A stretch of 64,000 nucleotides of DNA from a virus, in IMG/VR virus record IMGVR_UViG_3300042691_019786; one strand, given 5' to 3'. This document shows positions 1,241 to 26,243 of this stretch, piece by piece. How positions within the stretch are numbered: position 1 is the first letter of the stretch; each line of letters begins with the position of its first letter. Both the position numbers and the translations under genes were made by a program. The notes beneath the pieces are model-generated. The model was not told the DNA's origin. It saw only the letters and a program-made list of their open reading frames with translations, and ran no database searches.

Positions 1241-2416
1241 TTATAACTTGTAAAATTCTCTTCTTATTTTAACCAATAAAGTATTAACCAATTCTGGGTC
1301 AATCTTGTTTGGTAAGTCTGATTCGTCAAAGATTCTATCCATCTCTTTGATTTCAGCTTCTGCTGTATCAATAAGTGTATCTAAATCAACTTCACCACGT
1401 CTAATCGCTAACAATTCTTTAGCGTCTGGTCGTCTAACGATAATACCTTCACCTCTACCAATTTCTTTAGCCATTCTGATTAATCGCATACAATGCATCA
1501 TGTTTTTACCGTCAATCTTTTGACCATGTGCTTGTGTGTCAACATAACGCTGTTCATTTCTGTTAGCCAACCATTCTTCATACTCTTTGTAATCTTTACA
1601 ATGCATTGAGTAACCATCTTTGTTATAGATAATGTTACAGATAGGTTTTTCACCTTTTGGTATACTAGATAACCTTAATTGATTTGATTCAGCAGCGTTT
1701 GCACCTTCACCAGTCTTAACAAGACCTTTATATCCAAAACCCATAGGGTAACCTTCTTCTTTTCTCCAAGCTTTAGACTTTTCTCTAATATCTTCTGGAA
1801 TGTTTTCGTTAAAACAGTTATTAGCATCAACATCAAAGAAAACAGCATAAACATCTCTAGCGTTAGGTACGTTAGTTACACCGCAAAACTTTTCATCATA
1901 TGTACCGTTATTCCACACTTTCCATGGAATAGATTTTTCACCTTCAATAACATATACAAAGTCCAATACATCTTTACGAGTTACTTTATCTTTCTCCCAA
2001 TTCTGTTTTTTGTTAAGACCTCTAGCTTTTTGGATTTGCTGTACAGCATAACCAGCAAATGAGTTCTTACACCTTTTGGTAATAAAATCAGCCTTGTGGT
2101 CCAATACATATTGGAACAATGGATGTTTTGTGATGATACAATCTTCTGGTGTGTTAAGCAACTCTAAAACTGTAGGATTTGAGCTTCCCATTAGTTCTAA
2201 GAACCTTTTTAACTCCCAACCAGTATAGTCAGCATTAACATTCAACTGTTCAACATATCCAGTACCCAAGATATTATCAATAGGTAACATGTAAACGAAT
2301 TTTCGGTCTTCGTCAGACGTTGGTGTCTGAGTACCATAGGCTTGACTACCAATAATGCATTCAAAAAGAATCAATCCATTCTCTTTAAGGTAATCGTATG
2401 TAATTTTCTGTGTCAT
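1241..2416 (-). CDS. Pol-beta-superfamily nucleotidyltransferase (phage NrdC.11/YcgL-like)
   Basis: GSQAYGTQTPTSDED motif; NPTVLELL; C-terminal DGKNMMHCMRL...LLAIRRGE...LP; TACCTTTG promoter box at 2432-2439. Confidence 0.8.
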   Translation of the reverse strand: MTQKITYDYLKENGLILFECIIGSQAYGTQTPTSDEDRKFVYMLPIDNILGTGYVEQLNVNADYTGWELKRFLELMGSSNPTVLELLNTPEDCIITKHPLFQYVLDHKADFITKRCKNSFAGYAVQQIQKARGLNKKQNWEKDKVTRKDVLDFVYVIEGEKSIPWKVWNNGTYDEKFCGVTNVPNARDVYAVFFDVDANNCFNENIPEDIREKSKAWRKEEGYPMGFGYKGLVKTGEGANAAESNQLRLSSIPKGEKPICNIIYNKDGYSMHCKDYKEYEEWLANRNEQRYVDTQAHGQKIDGKNMMHCMRLIRMAKEIGRGEGIIVRRPDAKELLAIRRGEVDLDTLIDTAEAEIKEMDRIFDESDLPNKIDPELVNTLLVKIRREFYKL

Positions 2417-2516
2417 ATTCTTAATTTTTAACAAAGGTATGTATAATTTATTAATCTACCAAACATTAACCTATTTATTTTTTAAAATATTCTACTTATA
2501 TTTAAAATAAAACATT

Positions 2517-6138: not shown

Positions 6139-6681
6139 TTATGCAAATTTTATGAAACCTTTTTTAATTAAATCGTGAATATATGATGAATGGTGAATGT
6201 TTTTCTCATTTGCATACCCAATTGACATGTGCATTCCGAAATATGGTCTACCCAAACCTAATTCATCTCTAATTGATTGGAGTTGTTCTCTTTCTTCATG
6301 TGGAATGTTTAACCACCAATGTTCTGAGTTGGTTCTAGGGTCTAAGTCTAAGACTATATCAATTTTTTTACCATCCCATTTTTTCTTAACTTCTTCCCAT
6401 TTAGCTTCAACTTCTTCTGCTGACAACACACCGTTTTGTGATAAATCTTTCATACTATCGTTGATAAATGAAATGTGAGCACCACGTAGCGGTTTGTTTA
6501 ATATAAGATTGTATCTTTTCTTGATGAACCATGCATAATATTCAGCAACGTCACCATCAAAAAATACCATAGCAATCTTCTTCCAAGAAGATTGGTTAGA
6601 ATGTTTCTTAGTTCGGTCCTCTGGCTCGAACCCAATAGTTCCAGATAATGTTATTCTTCCTTGCATTTTCTCTTCGTTCAT
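6139..6681 (-). CDS. 2H phosphoesterase-family protein
   Basis: two HxS motifs (AHISFI, MHMSIG) with typical spacing. Confidence 0.7.
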   Translation of the reverse strand: MNEEKMQGRITLSGTIGFEPEDRTKKHSNQSSWKKIAMVFFDGDVAEYYAWFIKKRYNLILNKPLRGAHISFINDSMKDLSQNGVLSAEEVEAKWEEVKKKWDGKKIDIVLDLDPRTNSEHWWLNIPHEEREQLQSIRDELGLGRPYFGMHMSIGYANEKNIHHSSYIHDLIKKGFIKFA

Positions 6682-10436: not shown

Positions 10437-11273
10437 TTAAGCCATTTTAAAGAACATTTCTCTTACTTTAGATGAAATGTATTTATTTATTTCTTTTGGT
10501 TCCAATTGGTTCTCTACCATTGTATCCATTTCTTCTTTGATAACGTCATTAACAACCCATCTGATAACGTCACCCATTTTCTTAACATCAATAGGTTCGT
10601 TGTTTGGGAAAATGTTTTCTAACGCTTGGTTAAAACGACTTTCAGATACTGCATAATCAACAAATTCTTTAATAGAATTTAATTTCTCAACATCAACAGC
10701 TGCAAGTGTTTTTACTTTAGAACTAGAGTGGCGTTCGCCCTTTACCTTGAAACGATGAACAACACCTTTAAAATCAGCAGTCCATACAATACCTTCACCA
10801 ATTCCAGAGTAACCAAAAGCTTTTGCTACTGGACATTCTTCTTCAACTTTGATAGTCAACTCAGACAACTGATTTTGTACCAATTGTGGCATGTTAAAAT
10901 CAATATCGATTGAATATGTAGGGTAATCGTCAATATTGTAAATATTCTGCTCTGGTGCTCTTAAATAAGAGTAATCAACCCAATATGCTGGATTAGCTTT
11001 TAACTCTTCTTCAGTTTCAGTATGTGGTGTGATTTTAACACCAAAGATAAAGAAAGATTTAGGTAAATTGCAAACACCAACACCTTTTTGAATATTACCA
11101 CCAGCCCATTCACCGTAGATTGTTACAGTATTTTTATCACCGTCTAAACCATTGTTTAACAACACAGCATTAATCATAGCTTCAAAAATTTCTTTATGTG
11201 AATGCACAAAAAATGCAAATCCAGCGTTATCAGATGTTTTAATTTCTCTAATATTTTTTATTTTCTTTTCCAT
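10437..11273 (-). CDS. Rnl2-family RNA ligase, C-terminal half
   Basis: DNAGFAFF; motifs III (IYGEWAG), IIIa (FFIFGV), IV (GEGIVW) and V (FKVKG); lacks motif I. Confidence 0.8.
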   Translation of the reverse strand: MEKKIKNIREIKTSDNAGFAFFVHSHKEIFEAMINAVLLNNGLDGDKNTVTIYGEWAGGNIQKGVGVCNLPKSFFIFGVKITPHTETEEELKANPAYWVDYSYLRAPEQNIYNIDDYPTYSIDIDFNMPQLVQNQLSELTIKVEEECPVAKAFGYSGIGEGIVWTADFKGVVHRFKVKGERHSSSKVKTLAAVDVEKLNSIKEFVDYAVSESRFNQALENIFPNNEPIDVKKMGDVIRWVVNDVIKEEMDTMVENQLEPKEINKYISSKVREMFFKMA

Positions 11274-11625: not shown

Positions 11626-12456
11626 ATGAAAAAACAAAATTACCATTATGTTTATAGAATTACTAATAAACTAAATAAAAAACATTACTATGGTTCTAGA
11701 ACATCAAAAATAGAACCTAAATATGATTTAGGTGTGAGTTATTTTAGTTCTAGCTCTGACAAAGAATTTATTAACGACCAAAAATTAAATACACACAATT
11801 ACAAATATGTTATAGTTAGAGTTTTTAATTCTAGAAATGAAGCTTTATTATTTGAGTCGCATTTACATGCTAAATTCAATGTTGCTAAAAATGATAAATT
11901 TTATAATAAATCAAACGTAACAACAACTGGTTTTATTTACGGTTTTCTTGGTAAAAAACACAACCCAGAATCACGCAAAAATGCAATAACAAAAAAAGTT
12001 AATACTATGAAAACAACTATTAACAATAATGGTCAAAATCTATATAATTTAGCCGCTAGAAAAGGTGATGAGACAAAAAGAAACACTATCACATCTGATG
12101 GGTTAAATATCCATCAATTAGCAGCTAAAAAATATAAAGAACGTTTGGACGTTATTAAAGATGGTGAAACAATGTCTACTAGAGACAAATTAAAACAACC
12201 TAAAAAAGATAAAACAAATTACCAAAAAGAGGCTGAAATTATCCACATATATAACAACAACAATGAATTAATTTATGTAGTAACAATAAATTTAAGAAAA
12301 TTTTGTAAGGAACATAAATTACCATATACTGAATTATATAATTCAAAAAGAAACAACATCAAACTTTATGAAAATATTACTGATAAACGAATTATTACTA
12401 TATTAACCAATAAAGATTTTTACAAATATAAAAATTGGTATGCTATAAAACAATAA
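11626..12456 (+). CDS. GIY-YIG (Seg-like) homing endonuclease
   Basis: YVYRITN...HYYGSR...YFSSS...FYNKS; antisense within the split ligase locus. Confidence 0.85.
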   Translation: MKKQNYHYVYRITNKLNKKHYYGSRTSKIEPKYDLGVSYFSSSSDKEFINDQKLNTHNYKYVIVRVFNSRNEALLFESHLHAKFNVAKNDKFYNKSNVTTTGFIYGFLGKKHNPESRKNAITKKVNTMKTTINNNGQNLYNLAARKGDETKRNTITSDGLNIHQLAAKKYKERLDVIKDGETMSTRDKLKQPKKDKTNYQKEAEIIHIYNNNNELIYVVTINLRKFCKEHKLPYTELYNSKRNNIKLYENITDKRIITILTNKDFYKYKNWYAIKQ

Positions 12457-12814
12457 TCTCACCTATTTTATAATCATTAATTACTTTACCATTAATAATC
12501 GCATTTTCATCAAATAATTGTTTTGAACCATCTTCAAACTCAATTTCTATTAATTTTGAAGGTGCTGGTGTGATAATATTCTCACGAGATTGAGCCCACA
12601 TACCGCTTAGTGCGTTAAAAGACACACCAGCATTGGTACCATGTATTTTTACAGTACCTTTGAATGTGATAGTTGGTTTTGGTAATGTTGGGTCATAAAT
12701 CGCCTCACCATTTTCATCCAAACCAACAAAGTTGAAATGTCTGTTGACATTAGAAACAACTGTTCTAAATTGTTCAATAGACGGGAACTTGATTAATCGT
12801 TTATTTTTATTCAT
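12443..12814 (-). CDS. Rnl2-family RNA ligase, N-terminal half with a 40-aa C-terminal tag
   Basis: KFPSIEQF; motif I KIHGTNAGV; QSRENIITP followed by non-ligase sequence. Confidence 0.8.
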   Translation of the reverse strand: MNKNKRLIKFPSIEQFRTVVSNVNRHFNFVGLDENGEAIYDPTLPKPTITFKGTVKIHGTNAGVSFNALSGMWAQSRENIITPAPSKLIEIEFEDGSKQLFDENAIINGKVINDYKIGEIIVL

Positions 12815-16529: not shown

Positions 16530-17654
16530 TTACAACATTTTATATAACGTTTTATCGTCATAGTTAAACATATATTCTTCAACTGATGCTATTTTGTAAT
16601 CTTTCAACCCAAAATACAACCCAGTAAAGTTTTTTAAATCATATTTCTCACAAACTTCAAACACAGCAGCAGCAAACTTTTTTTGTTCTGGTTTTGTTAC
16701 GTTTTTTGGTTTACGCAACTTTAATTCATCCCATACAACATTCAATTTTGCAACCAACGCATCGTAAGACTCTTTAAGACGATTTAATTCTTCTGTTCTT
16801 TCTGGGAAAGTAGCAGCAAATTCTTCTATCTCGTTAGTTTTTACAATAGTTAATATGTTGTGTTCAGCAGTTTTACCTTTCAAGTGGTGTACCGCAACAT
16901 ATGCTGGATTTTTCACTTTAACACGATTGTCATTACCATCACGTACAACATAACCTTCTTCAGACCATGGCATACCTTCAAATGTTTTCAACAAGTGACC
17001 AACATTTTTTGCGTTTAAATCAAAAGATTTTACCAATGGTATATCCAATGATACCGCAGTCATTTCCAAGTCTCTCCCAGACAACTCAACAAGTGTTTTT
17101 CTGTTTCTAACAGCCAACAAAGTCGCTGATGATTCACCATGTGGTTTTACTACTATGTTATATGGTGTAGTTAACTCAAACACATAGATATAATCATAAT
17201 TTAACAAACATGCATTGAATGTGTATTTGTTGTTAACAGTATCCCAAAACAATTCGTTAAATTTAGTACCATTTTTGTTGTTAACTTCACCTTCACCGTT
17301 TGCAGTACCAGTAGTACCAGCATACCATGTCATGTCGTGCCAATCATAATACACTTGTATCATAGTACCATCCAATTTTTCAAGTACTTGTGCAGTATTC
17401 CAATCTATTTTAGCAGCGTTACCTTCTTCAGAGTTGAAGAATTTTCTAAACGCCAAAGACATTACGTTCCAAGTACCTTTTTCAAGGATGATTCCACGAC
17501 AATCTTGCATCTCTGGCAATGACATAAGTGTTGGTGACACTAATTGGTCATACTTCAAGAGTATTTTGTGTTCATACTCTCTAGTTTTTAAAGAAAAGTC
17601 TTTGATTGTTTTTTCTAAACCGTGTGTTCTTAAATATTTTTGTATAGCTAACAT
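16530..17654 (-). CDS. T4 Rnl1-like RNA ligase
   Basis: CRGIIL, KFFN, EKLDGT (motif I), FELTTPYNIVV, EEGYVV, RVKVK. Confidence 0.85.
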   Translation of the reverse strand: MLAIQKYLRTHGLEKTIKDFSLKTREYEHKILLKYDQLVSPTLMSLPEMQDCRGIILEKGTWNVMSLAFRKFFNSEEGNAAKIDWNTAQVLEKLDGTMIQVYYDWHDMTWYAGTTGTANGEGEVNNKNGTKFNELFWDTVNNKYTFNACLLNYDYIYVFELTTPYNIVVKPHGESSATLLAVRNRKTLVELSGRDLEMTAVSLDIPLVKSFDLNAKNVGHLLKTFEGMPWSEEGYVVRDGNDNRVKVKNPAYVAVHHLKGKTAEHNILTIVKTNEIEEFAATFPERTEELNRLKESYDALVAKLNVVWDELKLRKPKNVTKPEQKKFAAAVFEVCEKYDLKNFTGLYFGLKDYKIASVEEYMFNYDDKTLYKML

Positions 17655-18951: not shown

Positions 18952-19848
18952 TCATTGTTTTTTTATTTCAGTGACAATACCACTTATCATAAATGATTTA
19001 ATGTCTTGCCATTTTGTTATTTGATTGCTCATAACTGGTTTACCACCATCTGGGTTAATCGCAATAGTTATATGTGGAATTTCATTTTTTGATGGATAAC
19101 CGCTAACTCTTACAGCCATAGCTTTATCTGAAAGACCTAACGCTTCAACTGTCAATGTAACTTCTTTACCTAAATCAGTTTTATCTTTAAGTTCACCCAA
19201 ATTTATTGTCATATGATGTGTTATCACAGTCCAATCTTTTGGTATCCATATACCAAGTTTATCCAATAACGTACCTTTGGATTGTCCATCCAACAAAACA
19301 CAAGAATATAACACATCTGATTGTTTATACATATCTTTAGATTCAACTATTTTTTTAACAGTCAATGGCCCAACAGATTTATGTGAATCCATCATCATTT
19401 TTATTTTATCTAATGGAACTCCATGTGTATTTGACTCAGCTAATTGCTCAGCAGTCAAGTTACGAGTGCCAACATCATGTATTTGTATGTTGTTATCATC
19501 AAATCCCATTTCCAACGCTGCAACAACATATGCTTTAGCCTCATTGGCTTTGATATTCGTGTTATCTATTACAACTGGACTAATACCATCTTTCATAGAT
19601 TTGATTGCGTTAGATAAGTTCTTAGAGTGCATTCTAGACAAATCTTTAAAGTCTCCAGACTCTATCATTTTAGCAAAGAAACCTCTGTAGTCACCAGTAG
19701 CTTCAATTAAATCATCTGTTGAATGAATTATCCCTTCACCCATTAGTGATTTCGCCATTGTTGATTTTCCAGCCCCAGGAATACCACGCATCACAAACAA
19801 TTTTTGTGATGGTCTAGTTATTTCGATATTTAAAACATTTTTTTTCAT
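18952..19848 (-). CDS. P-loop polynucleotide kinase fused to a 2H cyclic phosphodiesterase (RNA end-healing)
   Basis: MRGIPGAGKST, VIDNTN, HGVP; C-terminal HHMTI and PHITIA. Confidence 0.8.
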   Translation of the reverse strand: MKKNVLNIEITRPSQKLFVMRGIPGAGKSTMAKSLMGEGIIHSTDDLIEATGDYRGFFAKMIESGDFKDLSRMHSKNLSNAIKSMKDGISPVVIDNTNIKANEAKAYVVAALEMGFDDNNIQIHDVGTRNLTAEQLAESNTHGVPLDKIKMMMDSHKSVGPLTVKKIVESKDMYKQSDVLYSCVLLDGQSKGTLLDKLGIWIPKDWTVITHHMTINLGELKDKTDLGKEVTLTVEALGLSDKAMAVRVSGYPSKNEIPHITIAINPDGGKPVMSNQITKWQDIKSFMISGIVTEIKKQ

Positions 19849-20896: not shown

Positions 20897-20981
20897 CGGA
20901 GAGCAGAGGAATCGAACCTCATACCAAAAAGGTACGTCACGATTAGCAGTCGGACCCTATCGCCATCAAGGATTACTCTCC
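20897..20981 (-). tRNA. tRNA-Ser(GCT)
   Basis: GGAGAG/CTCTCC acceptor, loop CT-GCT-AA, long variable arm, GGTTCGATTCC; no encoded CCA. Confidence 0.85.
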
Positions 20982-20987
20982 ATTTTG

Positions 20988-21148: not shown

Positions 21149-21218
21149 TACCGACTGTGAGGTTCGAACTCACTTAACCATCCATATGAGGGACGGTCCT
21201 TTTCCACTAAGTGTCGGC
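21149..21218 (-). tRNA. atypical tRNA with CAT anticodon (Met or Ile2)
   Basis: CGTCC-CT-CAT-AT-GGATG; good T arm; shortened D region; 70 nt. Confidence 0.65.
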
Positions 21219-21224
21219 ATTTTG

Positions 21225-21326
21225 CTCACCCACTAGGATTCGAACCTAGGACCTAACGGTTAACACTCCTTGTATGAACTTACTTATCATACCTAGCCGT
21301 TTGCTCTACCACTGAGCTATGGGTGA
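21225..21326 (-). tRNA. tRNA-Asn(GTT) with a 30-nt insertion in the anticodon loop
   Basis: AACGG-CT-[30 nt]-GTT-AA-CCGTT; all other arms canonical. Confidence 0.85.
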
Positions 21327-21336
21327 ATATTTGTTG

Positions 21337-21410
21337 CTCTCCCTCTAGGATTCGAACCTAGGACCCACGCATTAACAGTGCGTTGCTCTAACCTACTGAG
21401 CTAAAGGAGA
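21337..21410 (-). tRNA. tRNA-Asn(GTT)
   Basis: ACGCA-CT-GTT-AA-TGCGT; full cloverleaf. Confidence 0.92.
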
Positions 21411-21420
21411 ATATATTTTG

Positions 21421-21586: not shown

Positions 21587-21775
21587 TTACTTCCACTGTG
21601 TTTTTCGGTAGTGTTTCCAAGTTTTATACATTCTAACTTGATAACTCATTTTGTTTCCATAGAAACGAATACCTTCATCCCAATAAATTGGGTAGAAATC
21701 ATTGATTAACATGATTCGGTATTGTCTACCATTTTGTGCTTTGTTCAGTTTTGCTCTGTTTACGTTTTTACTCAT
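21587..21775 (-). CDS. small basic protein within the tRNA array
   Basis: MSKNVNRAKL...WKHYRKTQWK. Confidence 0.55.
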   Translation of the reverse strand: MSKNVNRAKLNKAQNGRQYRIMLINDFYPIYWDEGIRFYGNKMSYQVRMYKTWKHYRKTQWK

Positions 21776-21845
21776 AATGTTGTGAGTCTGTGAATAGCAG
21801 ACCTTACAACATATCAAATTCTTTTTTCATAAAATTAAATTTTAG

Positions 21846-22150: not shown

Positions 22151-22729
22151 TTATTTATTCTTACCAGCGTATGTTTCAGTTTGTGAATGACAATTAGGAC
22201 ATAAAAAACGTAAATTTTCTATTCTATTATCATTATTTATACCGTTAATATGGTCTATTTGTAATATTAGTTTACCACCCATCCATTCACCAGTATTACC
22301 ACAACTTACACATTTATACTCTAATAAATTACTTCTTAACACTCTATTCTTTAAATGACCAGAATTATATTGTGAATTTTCACAAAATATTTCAGAATCA
22401 CTATATTTTACCTTAGTAACGTTTCTTCTAGGGTTACCTTTATATAAATCATTATCTATTCCATATAAATCAAAATACCTTTTTAACGTTCTATAATTAC
22501 CAGCTTTTAGTGTTAAACCCATTTTTTCTAACACTTCAGCTTTAGAATTTGAAGATTCTATTAAAGGTTTTAATTCTTCAAAACTCCATTTATGATAATA
22601 TTTTTTAGGTTTAAGACCATATTTATCTGCCCAATATCTTATAGTCGTTAATGATTTATTAGTTTTTTTACTTATTTGTCTTAAAGATAAACCTTCTTTA
22701 AGAAGTTTTTCTAATTCTATTTTTTCCAT
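22151..22729 (-). CDS. HNH homing endonuclease
   Basis: N-terminal HTH; CVSCG...LQIDHINGINNDNRIENLRFLCPNCHSQT. Confidence 0.9.
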   Translation of the reverse strand: MEKIELEKLLKEGLSLRQISKKTNKSLTTIRYWADKYGLKPKKYYHKWSFEELKPLIESSNSKAEVLEKMGLTLKAGNYRTLKRYFDLYGIDNDLYKGNPRRNVTKVKYSDSEIFCENSQYNSGHLKNRVLRSNLLEYKCVSCGNTGEWMGGKLILQIDHINGINNDNRIENLRFLCPNCHSQTETYAGKNK

Positions 22730-25112: not shown

Positions 25113-26243
25113 TCAAAAAATAAATATATCTAGATAAAGTTTTTTAAAATTATCAGTTTCTAGTCTTTGTATTTCTTTACCTAATTCTGGTCCTTGTTTT
25201 AACCCCATCTTTGTCATTAGGTCTGAACCATTAACCGTTAATTTAAATAATAAAAATGTATCTATAATCTTTACATCAATACCACTTAATTGAGCAAATC
25301 TAGTTATTTGTTCTGCTGTTACACCAGATGTCTTTTCAGCTTTTTTAAGCGTTACAGCTGTATCAATCGACAAATTCAATAGACTAATCAAAAATGTAAT
25401 AGCTCTTATTTCATCAATTGAGTATTTTAATTTGTTCAATTGTTTTGTTAATAAATCAACTTTATTATTCTTTAACAACATTGCTAAAACAATAATTATA
25501 TCATTATCTTCAATGAAATTTTTATTAACATTAACATCTTTAAAAACCCAATCAAATAAATTGTATTTGTCAATCATTTTTAAAAACGATTTTACAGATT
25601 TTGCTGATTTGATACCTTTCAAAAACTCATCTCTGATTCTTTCACCAGATATACCTTCCAAACTAGCATCTTTTTGCAATGCAGCGTCAACTGATGGGTC
25701 TAATTCACTACCAAATCTACCAGCAAATCTAATTGCTCTTAATATACGTAATCTATCTTCACCAAATCTATCTTCAGCTGCACCTACAGTCCTTACAACA
25801 CTGTTTTTAAGGTCTTCTATACCATCAACCAAATCAACAACTTCTGACGTGTCTATATCGTAAAATAATGCGTTGATTGTTAAGTCACGTCTTTTAACGT
25901 CACCTACTATATCTGTAAAACTAACACCATCTGGTCTTCTACCGCTAGATAAGTCTTCCCTAAAAGTTGCGATTTCGTATTCACCCATATCAGTAAAGAC
26001 GTTGATAACACCAAATGCTTTACCAGTTGGTAAAGTTCTAAAACCACCTTTAGCCATTATGTCTTCCACTTGGTCTGGGATAGCATCGGTTGCCAAATCG
26101 TAATCTTTAGGTGTTTTACCTAACAACGCATCACGCACTGCACCACCTACAACATATAGGTTAAAACCATTTTGCTTAAAAACATCTTTTATTTGTAAAA
26201 TGTCTTTTGGTATTGGCATATCAAATATAATTCTCTTTTCCAT
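25113..26243 (-). CDS. cca: CCA-adding tRNA nucleotidyltransferase
   Basis: VGGAVRD..KDYDLAT, RRDLTINA, EDRLRILRAIRF, ERIRDE; the tRNAs here lack encoded CCA. Confidence 0.85.
   Translation of the reverse strand: MEKRIIFDMPIPKDILQIKDVFKQNGFNLYVVGGAVRDALLGKTPKDYDLATDAIPDQVEDIMAKGGFRTLPTGKAFGVINVFTDMGEYEIATFREDLSSGRRPDGVSFTDIVGDVKRRDLTINALFYDIDTSEVVDLVDGIEDLKNSVVRTVGAAEDRFGEDRLRILRAIRFAGRFGSELDPSVDAALQKDASLEGISGERIRDEFLKGIKSAKSVKSFLKMIDKYNLFDWVFKDVNVNKNFIEDNDIIIVLAMLLKNNKVDLLTKQLNKLKYSIDEIRAITFLISLLNLSIDTAVTLKKAEKTSGVTAEQITRFAQLSGIDVKIIDTFLLFKLTVNGSDLMTKMGLKQGPELGKEIQRLETDNFKKLYLDIFIF

Follow-up and report, generated by a model that had tools for sequence, protein, structure and literature searches.

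This analysis concerns a transfer RNA (tRNA) gene for asparagine whose anticodon loop is interrupted by a short insert, and which lies in a 64,000-nt stretch of viral DNA (IMG/VR record IMGVR_UViG_3300042691_019786), hereafter the window; other loci and contigs brought in for comparison carry labels such as L001 and L002. The phage genome to which the window belongs is very large, CheckV giving a 64-kb relative a completeness of 18%, and the window encodes a tmRNA and a CUA suppressor tRNA; because the phage carries a tmRNA, we take its host to be bacterial. The gene itself, a complete tRNA-Asn(GUU) read from the minus strand (21326..21225), is packed within a dense tRNA array and measures 102 nt with its insert and 72 nt without it, while an uninterrupted tRNA-Asn(GUU) gene stands 9 nt upstream (Table 1).

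The Rfam tRNA model RF00005 matches the interrupted gene at 58.4 bits (E-value ~1e-10), against a gathering score of 29, and the alignment covers model positions 1-71 of 71 with a single 35-nt insertion in the anticodon loop. The gene has an acceptor stem of 7 bp, a D arm of 4 bp with a 7-nt loop, and an anticodon stem of 5 bp, and its 3' part runs from G34-U35-U36-A37-A38 through the variable loop and the T arm to the discriminator G, so that the bacterial Asn features U1-A72 and G73 are both present. The insert separates C32-U33 from G34; because a U stands before both junctions, it can equally be placed at 21266-21295, between C32 and U33. In-silico removal leaves a 7-nt anticodon loop, CU-GUU-AA, in a gene whose identity to phage tRNA-Asn genes lacking an insert is 89-90%. 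ARAGORN misses the gene in its default mode and calls an intron-containing tRNA-Asn once introns are allowed. Within the insert, folding predicts a 6-bp stem, GUAUGA/UCAUAC, closed by a 9-nt loop, of which the window holds no second copy. The Rfam match and our own parse bear out an earlier, sequence-only reading of this DNA, which had described a tRNA-Asn with a 30-nt insert and a register ambiguity of one nucleotide, an internal hairpin, otherwise intact arms and an adjacent uninterrupted Asn(GTT); its letters, AACGG-CT-[[sequence]]-GTT-AA-CCGTT, are those of the minus strand, with the insert and both exon halves as we find them.

Table 1. Features of the window that are discussed in the text, in window coordinates.
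Feature	Position	Strand	Basis
Interrupted tRNA-Asn(GUU)	21225..21326	-	RF00005 58.4 bits; ARAGORN with introns allowed
5' exon: acceptor 5' strand, D arm, anticodon-stem 5' strand, C32-U33	21295..21326	-	Stem covariation, 10-11 homologues
30-nt insert (putative mini-intron), U33/G34	21265..21294	-	Empty versus filled orthologous alleles; conserved in 11 genes
Insert hairpin	21272..21292	-	Fold; one stem pair with both sides changed
3' exon: G34 to discriminator G; no CCA encoded	21225..21264	-	Sequence parse, Rfam alignment
Uninterrupted tRNA-Asn(GUU) paralogue, second backbone type	21336..21410	-	ARAGORN; Rfam 70 bits
HNH endonuclease, head of tRNA array	22151..22729	-	Pfam HNH 4.6e-7
Kinase fused to 2H cyclic phosphodiesterase	18952..19848	-	AAA_33 1.2e-8; tRNA_lig_CPD 8e-6
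Rnl1-type (T4 RnlA family) RNA ligase	16530..17654	-	RNA_lig_T4_1 (PF09511) 5.5e-14
Rnl2-like ligase, apparently split, N-terminal piece	12443-12814	-	
Rnl2-like ligase, apparently split, C-terminal piece	10437-11273	-	
RlaP nucleotidyltransferase	1241-2434		
CCA-adding enzyme	25113..26243	-	PolyA_pol 2.6e-34 and tRNA nucleotidyltransferase domains
TROVE-like (DUF2828) protein	37843-39282		

The insert is not a peculiarity of the window. Scanning IMG/VR and the JGI metagenome collection by pattern, together with one find by a covariance model, brought the number of distinct tRNA-Asn genes with an insert of 30-32 nt at the identical site to 11, on about ten environmental contigs from one lineage of giant uncultured phages, a recurrence that is far beyond chance. 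Ten of the 11 filled genes were retrieved by a pattern in which the D arm had to be intact and CU...GUUAA and the variable loop present, and which left the acceptor and T arms unconstrained; the eleventh, L016 820-925, was found independently by the Rfam tRNA model. The filled genes represent two different tRNA-Asn backbones, and in all of them the comparison of homologous inserts, which the sequence-only reading had proposed, finds a conserved hairpin and conserved ends: the first base A, the hairpin stem, several loop bases and a terminal GAGU are invariant, and differences in length are confined to an A-rich stretch between the hairpin and GAGU. No insert was found in 50,697 GenBank phage records, where only ordinary tRNA matches that leave the insert uncovered were returned, and a prokaryote genome collection yielded chance matches only (L017, L018). 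The loci L003-L006 were likewise rejected as carriers, being chance matches, and a run of ARAGORN with introns allowed on 120 loci mostly fused neighbouring tRNAs falsely, so its results were not used.

Comparison of filled with empty genes indicates how this distribution arose. Once the insert is removed in silico, the filled genes and their uninterrupted phage counterparts on the same backbones share 82-93% identity. L153, from a 247-kb phage contig, and L016 have matching three-gene tRNA-Asn arrays in which the first two genes are both uninterrupted in the former and both interrupted in the latter, and the exons of the first gene align with a difference of one base; similarly L109, which is syntenic with the window, has an empty gene at the place that is filled in the window and in L007. 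The two inserts of L016 share a tail variant found nowhere else, yet sit in different tRNA-Asn backbones and differ from each other solely in a compensatory hairpin pair; the L016 orthologue of the backbone that is uninterrupted in the window (21336-21410) is also insert-bearing. The window, L013 and L002, for their part, have an identical 30-nt insert although their exons differ, at about 20 positions between the window and L002. The existence of empty and filled orthologous alleles, together with a private variant in two paralogues of L016, shows that the insert is mobile. All ten filled genes of the main type (type A) have an A[A/U]CGN anticodon stem, as against 10 of 100 empty ones, a bias that fits co-conversion of flanking exon sequence. 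Judged by these hallmarks, the insert behaves as a homing-type element devoid of any coding capacity (no open reading frame, ORF, lies inside it), and it has probably spread into empty orthologous or paralogous tRNA-Asn genes by double-strand-break repair or gene conversion. A separate observation concerns L109 12698-12888 (minus strand), where acceptor and T arms like those of the window's uninterrupted Asn gene are combined with the interrupted type's D loop and anticodon arm; compared with window positions 21215-21420, such mosaic paralogues indicate frequent recombination among tRNA-Asn copies.

Genes for homing endonucleases of the GIY-YIG and HNH types crowd these tRNA arrays and may help the insert spread. 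One family, a 113-aa HNH protein (L007 976-1317), lies directly upstream of the interrupted gene and is intact in L002/L007, with remnants in L001/L008/L012 (L008 3140-3268) and in L014 (1515-1622); family members or remnants thus occupy this place in 3 of about 10 filled loci. The same family also adjoins uninterrupted tRNA-Asn genes, at L153 1843-2070, L020 8534-8755 and L088 3012-3233, and its recurrence upstream of tRNA-Asn suggests a homing endonuclease with a target in or near this gene. It is a plausible mobiliser of the insert, although not tied to it. The HNH gene at the head of the window's own array belongs to another family and has a 94% identical copy in L002/L007. The sequence-only reading offered a homing-endonuclease scar as an alternative, and a link to homing endonucleases is substantially supported by presence/absence polymorphism, by copying between paralogues and by the upstream HNH genes. 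Since the HNH family adjoins uninterrupted tRNA-Asn genes too, the insert is not required for immunity.

These data bear on an explanation in which the insert is a DNA insertion that is never removed from RNA, either a selfish hairpin or a scar conferring immunity to a homing endonuclease, whereby redundant tRNA-Asn copies are inactivated and the phage relies on an uninterrupted one. Much of the mobility evidence would suit it: the insert moves, in part recently (the one-nucleotide exon difference between L016 and L153), HNH genes or their remnants lie upstream of interrupted copies, the arrays teem with endonuclease genes, every adequately long locus has an uninterrupted tRNA-Asn(GUU), and no splicing enzyme was found among about 80 window ORFs. 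We nevertheless consider it unlikely, if deserving of serious weight, because the HNH family stands beside uninterrupted genes as well, because none of the 11 copies shows stem decay, because compensatory change in the hairpin points to a role as RNA or as a single strand, and because, within clades of filled genes, changes in the exon stems keep the structure while the insert accumulates substitutions.

The evidence for this structural constraint comes from the stems of the interrupted genes. Stem positions are paired in 96% of cases across ten aligned genes, and both sides have changed in 14 of 29 pairs (7/7 in the acceptor stem, 4/5 in the T stem and 2/5 in the anticodon stem); not one of 500 shuffles reaches such values on either measure, and RNAalifold agrees with the covariation result. 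Conservation of the D arm, of CU...GUUAA and of the variable loop is no evidence here, since it was fixed by the retrieval pattern. In the insert itself, one hairpin pair alternates between A-U, in 6-7 genes, and G-C, in 4 genes, a compensatory difference that separates even the two L016 copies. Because covariation could predate insertion, the comparison was then limited to genes that share both backbone and insert lineage. Between the window and L013 there is one compensatory pair, one change from G-C to G.U and no broken pair. L010, L014 and L015 differ in their exons solely by two compensatory acceptor changes, and in their inserts at 2-3 positions. The most fitting interpretation of this within-clade pattern is that purifying selection has acted on the cloverleaf since the insert arrived. 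Decay of the tRNA body among homologues, which the sequence-only reading had raised, was looked for and not seen in the 11 filled genes, most of them retrieved by pattern.

Many filled copies do have an odd T arm, with U53.U61 and a swap of A54/U58, which we do not take for decay because, in a set of more than 100 phage tRNA-Asn genes without an insert, it is common. The arm belongs to a widespread type of phage tRNA-Asn, with U53.U61 in place of G-C and a loop AUCGUAA (A54, U58), that is present in L010, L014, L015, L016 and more than 20 IMG/VR loci (for example L081, L151 and L093); carried as it is by many uninterrupted genes, this non-canonical T arm is a stable design.

The insert fits none of the established intron classes. 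A group I intron is rejected on size, as the sequence-only reading had argued: the catalytic core P3-P9 of that class requires roughly 200 nt or more, and an insert of 30-32 nt has none. No Rfam intron or ribozyme family matched the 761 nt around the insert at E-values up to 10, and no ribozyme or group I family reached its gathering score anywhere in the window. The boundaries also differ from those of group I introns, which have U before the 5' site and G as the last base, whereas the two bases are U and U when the insert is placed at 33/34 and C and G when it is placed at 32/33. The sequence-only reading likewise saw no clear bulge-helix-bulge, the structure recognised in archaeal and eukaryal tRNA introns, and we agree that there is none. 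If the anticodon stem serves as outer helix, each junction is placed, as it should be, behind the second base of a 3-nt bulge, but the 4-bp central helix fails, since insert bases 2-5 (GGUA) and U35-A38 (UUAA) form only one of four pairs. Among other candidates, a small insert ORF (AUG, 14 codons) is not conserved, for example in L001; a Shine-Dalgarno-like AAGGAG in the tail is confined to the window, L013 and L002, the others having AAAGAG; and an alternative pairing between UGUU and the 5' stem strand, suggested by a single-sequence fold, is lost in genes with an AUCGG stem.

The absence of Rfam matches also speaks to the idea of a self-processing RNA, in which insert and tRNA scaffold would cleave themselves and RtcB or Rnl1 would ligate the ends. 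The hairpin and the single-stranded bases are indeed strongly conserved, and the cyclic-phosphate ends of such an RNA would suit the kinase/2H healing enzyme encoded nearby. All known self-cleaving motifs are larger than 30 nt, however, Rfam ribozymes and introns gave no match at E-values up to 10, and two separate cuts would be required; we find this very hard to credit.

A further alternative is that the 102-nt RNA is functional as such, an unspliced and non-decoding look-alike of a tRNA that presents UGUUAA in a bulge of a long anticodon arm. It could serve as a decoy for a nuclease or modification enzyme directed at tRNA-Asn, or as the partner of a Ro/TROVE-like protein, and a TROVE-like DUF2828 protein is in fact encoded in the window. 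Conservation of tRNA body and insert alike would follow naturally, and the insert could mask the anticodon: predicted folds, none of which contains a bulge-helix-bulge, pair either C32-U33 with the AG of the tail or U33-A-G with U35-U36-A37 (that is, U33-A37, A-U36 and G.U35). Neither of these pairings between insert and anticodon loop is supported by covariation, however, and the second insert base varies among G, C and A opposite a fixed U35. The two halves of the split anticodon loop are, moreover, exactly canonical, in part an effect of ascertainment, and precise insertion into an ordinary tRNA-Asn, on two backbones, would be an odd origin for a new RNA. We therefore regard a functional unspliced RNA as improbable.

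The reading that we favour, tentatively and from comparison of sequences, is that the insert is a protein-dependent mini-intron, whose flanks would be sealed at 33/34 by the phage's own Rnl1-type ligase together with its kinase/2H protein. We infer that the insert is transcribed as part of a polycistronic tRNA precursor, and that a protein endonuclease would then cut behind U33 and behind the insert's final U, probably reading the conserved hairpin together with the invariant single-stranded ends (A first, GAGU last). The cloverleaf would hold both exon halves together after cutting until the ends are healed and then sealed at 33/34, giving a normal CU-GUU-AA anticodon loop. In phage T4, Rnl1 reseals the 33/34 junction after PrrC has cleaved tRNA-Lys; because this is the very junction that would be sealed here, the Rnl1-type ligase and the kinase/2H protein are the natural candidates for these last steps.

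Candidate enzymes are at hand in the window, which encodes the kinase/2H protein, the Rnl1-type ligase, an Rnl2-like ligase, RlaP and a CCA-adding enzyme; the tRNA genes of its array encode no CCA. The kinase/2H and Rnl1-type genes lie 1.4-4 kb from the interrupted gene. The former has a P-loop (GIPGAGKST) and two HxT motifs (HHMT and HITI), and the latter has its KxDG motif as EKLDGT and matches TIGR02308 at 2.3e-15, under the equivalog cut-off; with the Pfam matches in Table 1, these motifs confirm the phage kinase/2H enzyme and RNA ligases that the sequence-only reading had invoked. Searches of PDB sequences with the kinase/2H protein and the ligases returned no match. Two relatives with the insert conserve both genes, and so, equally, does L109, which lacks it; the two genes are a general repair kit, available for sealing, not a dedicated splicing module; comparable RNA repair kits are known from jumbo phages (PMC7824862). 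The two pieces of the Rnl2-like gene are ~1.2 kb apart, with a homing-endonuclease ORF (11626-12456, plus strand) and an 86-aa ORF in the gap, and Rfam finds no group I intron there at E-values up to 1.

Several points weigh against protein-dependent splicing. The kinase/2H and Rnl1-type genes are not specific to the insert, given their presence in L109, and the interrupted copy would seem dispensable to the phage, since every adequately long filled locus also has an uninterrupted tRNA-Asn(GUU). Covariation among the interrupted genes may largely predate insertion, the insert being mobile, and decayed copies would have escaped a retrieval pattern that demanded intact parts. Among the roughly 80 ORFs scanned in the window no RNA endonuclease was recognised, and none matched Tpt1/KptA (PF01885); the 2H/Trl1-type pathway leaves a 2'-phosphate that Tpt1 removes. 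A splicing endonuclease of the EndA/Sen family also gave no Pfam match among these ~80 ORFs, which come from 64 kb of a genome of probably 350 kb. Two candidate nucleases were considered and set aside. A 311-aa ORF between the kinase/2H gene and the array has a hydrophobic, signal-peptide-like N-terminus and no family match, and a 789-aa Rad50-hook protein was rejected as an RloC-like nuclease, because it adjoins a phosphoesterase of the Mre11 type and is more likely SbcC/Rad50.

The same enzymes were central to the interpretation preferred in the sequence-only reading, in which the interrupted gene is a nuclease-activated reserve. In the form weighed here, a host anticodon nuclease that attacks tRNA-Asn 5' of the wobble base would also cut both U/R junctions, and phage enzymes would join the exons, so that a spare tRNA matures only under host attack. 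Several features of the gene accord with this proposal, such as the U before both junctions, the retention by each exon of its own half of the anticodon loop beside its stem strand, the position at 33/34, which is the established site of breakage and repair by T4 PrrC and Rnl1, the full repair kit and the normal Asn copy next door. Yet an Asn-specific nuclease of such a kind is neither known nor found in the window, where no anticodon nuclease cutting 5' of position 34 in the manner of T4 was found either, and the proposal leaves the conserved hairpin and GAGU tail without a role and the mobility of the insert unexplained. The repair genes, moreover, are present in an insert-less relative. With nothing that points to a host anticodon nuclease or to a reserve role, we think this account has little chance of being correct.

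If the insert is a protein-dependent mini-intron, as we tentatively suppose, it would combine traits of several known systems. The closest in description are the introns of Lak megaphage tRNAs. Devoto et al. 2019 (PMC6784885) describe conserved, 'enigmatic' introns in these tRNAs, state that phage tRNA introns were previously unreported, and name tRNAs for Tyr, Thr, Phe and Gly, with a tRNA-Thr intron that may itself encode a tRNA; their Table S6 gives 93 nt for the Lak tRNA-Tyr intron. Compared by description and size, the Lak introns and our insert are both anticodon-loop inserts in tRNAs of very large phages, identical or nearly so across samples, present or absent at the same gene, and without a ribozyme class or known mechanism. 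They differ in that ours is a simple hairpin of 30-32 nt at 33/34 of tRNA-Asn, as opposed to 93 nt in the tRNA-Tyr example, and, with a single 6-bp hairpin, has no module resembling an acceptor or T arm such as the tRNA-Thr intron might have. No account of a short hairpin insert in a phage tRNA turned up in full-text literature searches. The kind itself is barely described, and this variant of it stands out by being minimal in size, by sitting at the junction that Rnl1 repairs and by its unusually clean empty and filled alleles.

The repair of T4 tRNA-Lys by PrrC, Pnkp and Rnl1 shares with our locus the 33/34 junction and a nearby Rnl1-family ligase and polynucleotide kinase. In T4, however, one bond is cut and resealed and nothing is removed, whereas here 30 nt would have to leave by two cuts; and the healing enzyme here joins a kinase to a 2H phosphodiesterase, as in Trl1, while that of T4 joins a kinase to a phosphatase. 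The tRNA introns of archaea and eukaryotes are likewise short, free of ribozymes, located in the anticodon loop and able to pair with the anticodon. They are excised by EndA/TSEN from a bulge-helix-bulge, after which RtcB, or Trl1 plus Tpt1, completes splicing. Fungal and plant Trl1 unites kinase, 2H phosphodiesterase and Rnl1-type ligase activities that are here found on separate proteins. The present insert departs from these introns in its position (33/34, not 37/38), in its lack of a bulge-helix-bulge and in its bacterial host, and neither an EndA-like gene nor Tpt1 was found in the window.

Group I introns occupy the anticodon loops of bacterial tRNAs for Leu, fMet, Ile and Arg (10.1101/2020.01.27.920355) and resemble the insert in their site and in a mobility that leaves empty and filled alleles; unlike it, they are of the 200-nt class and have a catalytic core. 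As regards mobility, a further parallel is the collaborative homing of the cyanophage psbA intron, an ORF-less, self-splicing group I intron, by F-CphI, a free-standing endonuclease encoded by an adjacent gene. Our insert, too, is ORF-less and resides in a conserved gene, with free-standing HNH or GIY-YIG genes adjacent in several relatives; its sites exist empty as well as filled, and the flanks bear signs of co-conversion. It does not belong to group I, however, and the HNH family is also found beside uninterrupted tRNA-Asn genes. A fuller scheme, in which protein-catalysed tRNA splicing in giant phages has evolved from their anticodon-loop repair kit, with an endonuclease that recognises the hairpin and GAGU, a split Trl1-like set and HNH-aided spread, is possible, though we remain doubtful of it as a whole.

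The tRNA array in which the insert resides has further peculiarities. Next to the interrupted gene is an aberrant tRNA-like gene (21149-21218, minus strand) with a CAU anticodon, no 8-9 linker and a weak D arm; it scores 26.8 bits, under the gathering score, and has a similar counterpart in L001. A second aberrant gene of the array (20897-20982, minus strand) is Ser(GCU)-like and scored by the tRNA-Sec model only, at 36.8 bits. The array also contains a 76-aa ORF (21587-21817, minus strand) of no assigned family, which has about 40 homologues, all of them within tRNA arrays of related phage contigs in which gene orders vary; the relatives retrieved through it, L019-L036, have no insert and other array orders. 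In related phages, many tRNAs of isotypes that normally have a short variable arm (His, Ile, Asn, Met, Arg, Thr, Val, Cys and Trp) are 84-92 nt long with a hairpin-forming one, often beside an isoacceptor of normal length (L008 1151-2035 and 3386-4052; L014 1634-1722; L015 3392-3480 and 5214-6184; L020 7810-8890). At 6502-6626, L020 further has a tRNA-like gene of 125 nt, scored at 45 bits by the Rfam tRNA model, whose 'anticodon loop' measures 4 nt and whose extra arm measures ~55 nt, and ARAGORN also calls tRNAs with 2-nt and 4-nt anticodons in L020 and in L023-L025.

What the insert means for phage biology depends on whether it is spliced. If it is not, it would be a minimal mobile insert that disables redundant tRNA genes. 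To our knowledge, the textbook position is that tRNA introns of bacteria and phages are self-splicing group I introns, the splicing of tRNAs by proteins being a feature of archaea and eukaryotes; were the fuller scheme above true, no smaller mobile intron would be known, and non-ribozyme tRNA splicing would have its first case in the bacterial world. If the insert is spliced, phages would own a splicing route that heals and seals, their widespread RNA-repair genes would gain a housekeeping substrate, as perhaps would orphan bacterial Tpt1/KptA, and the 'enigmatic' introns reported from Lak megaphages in 2019 would gain an explanation. With a tiny insert, an unambiguous exon junction, natural empty and filled alleles and candidate enzymes nearby, this family of inserts offers a convenient test case.

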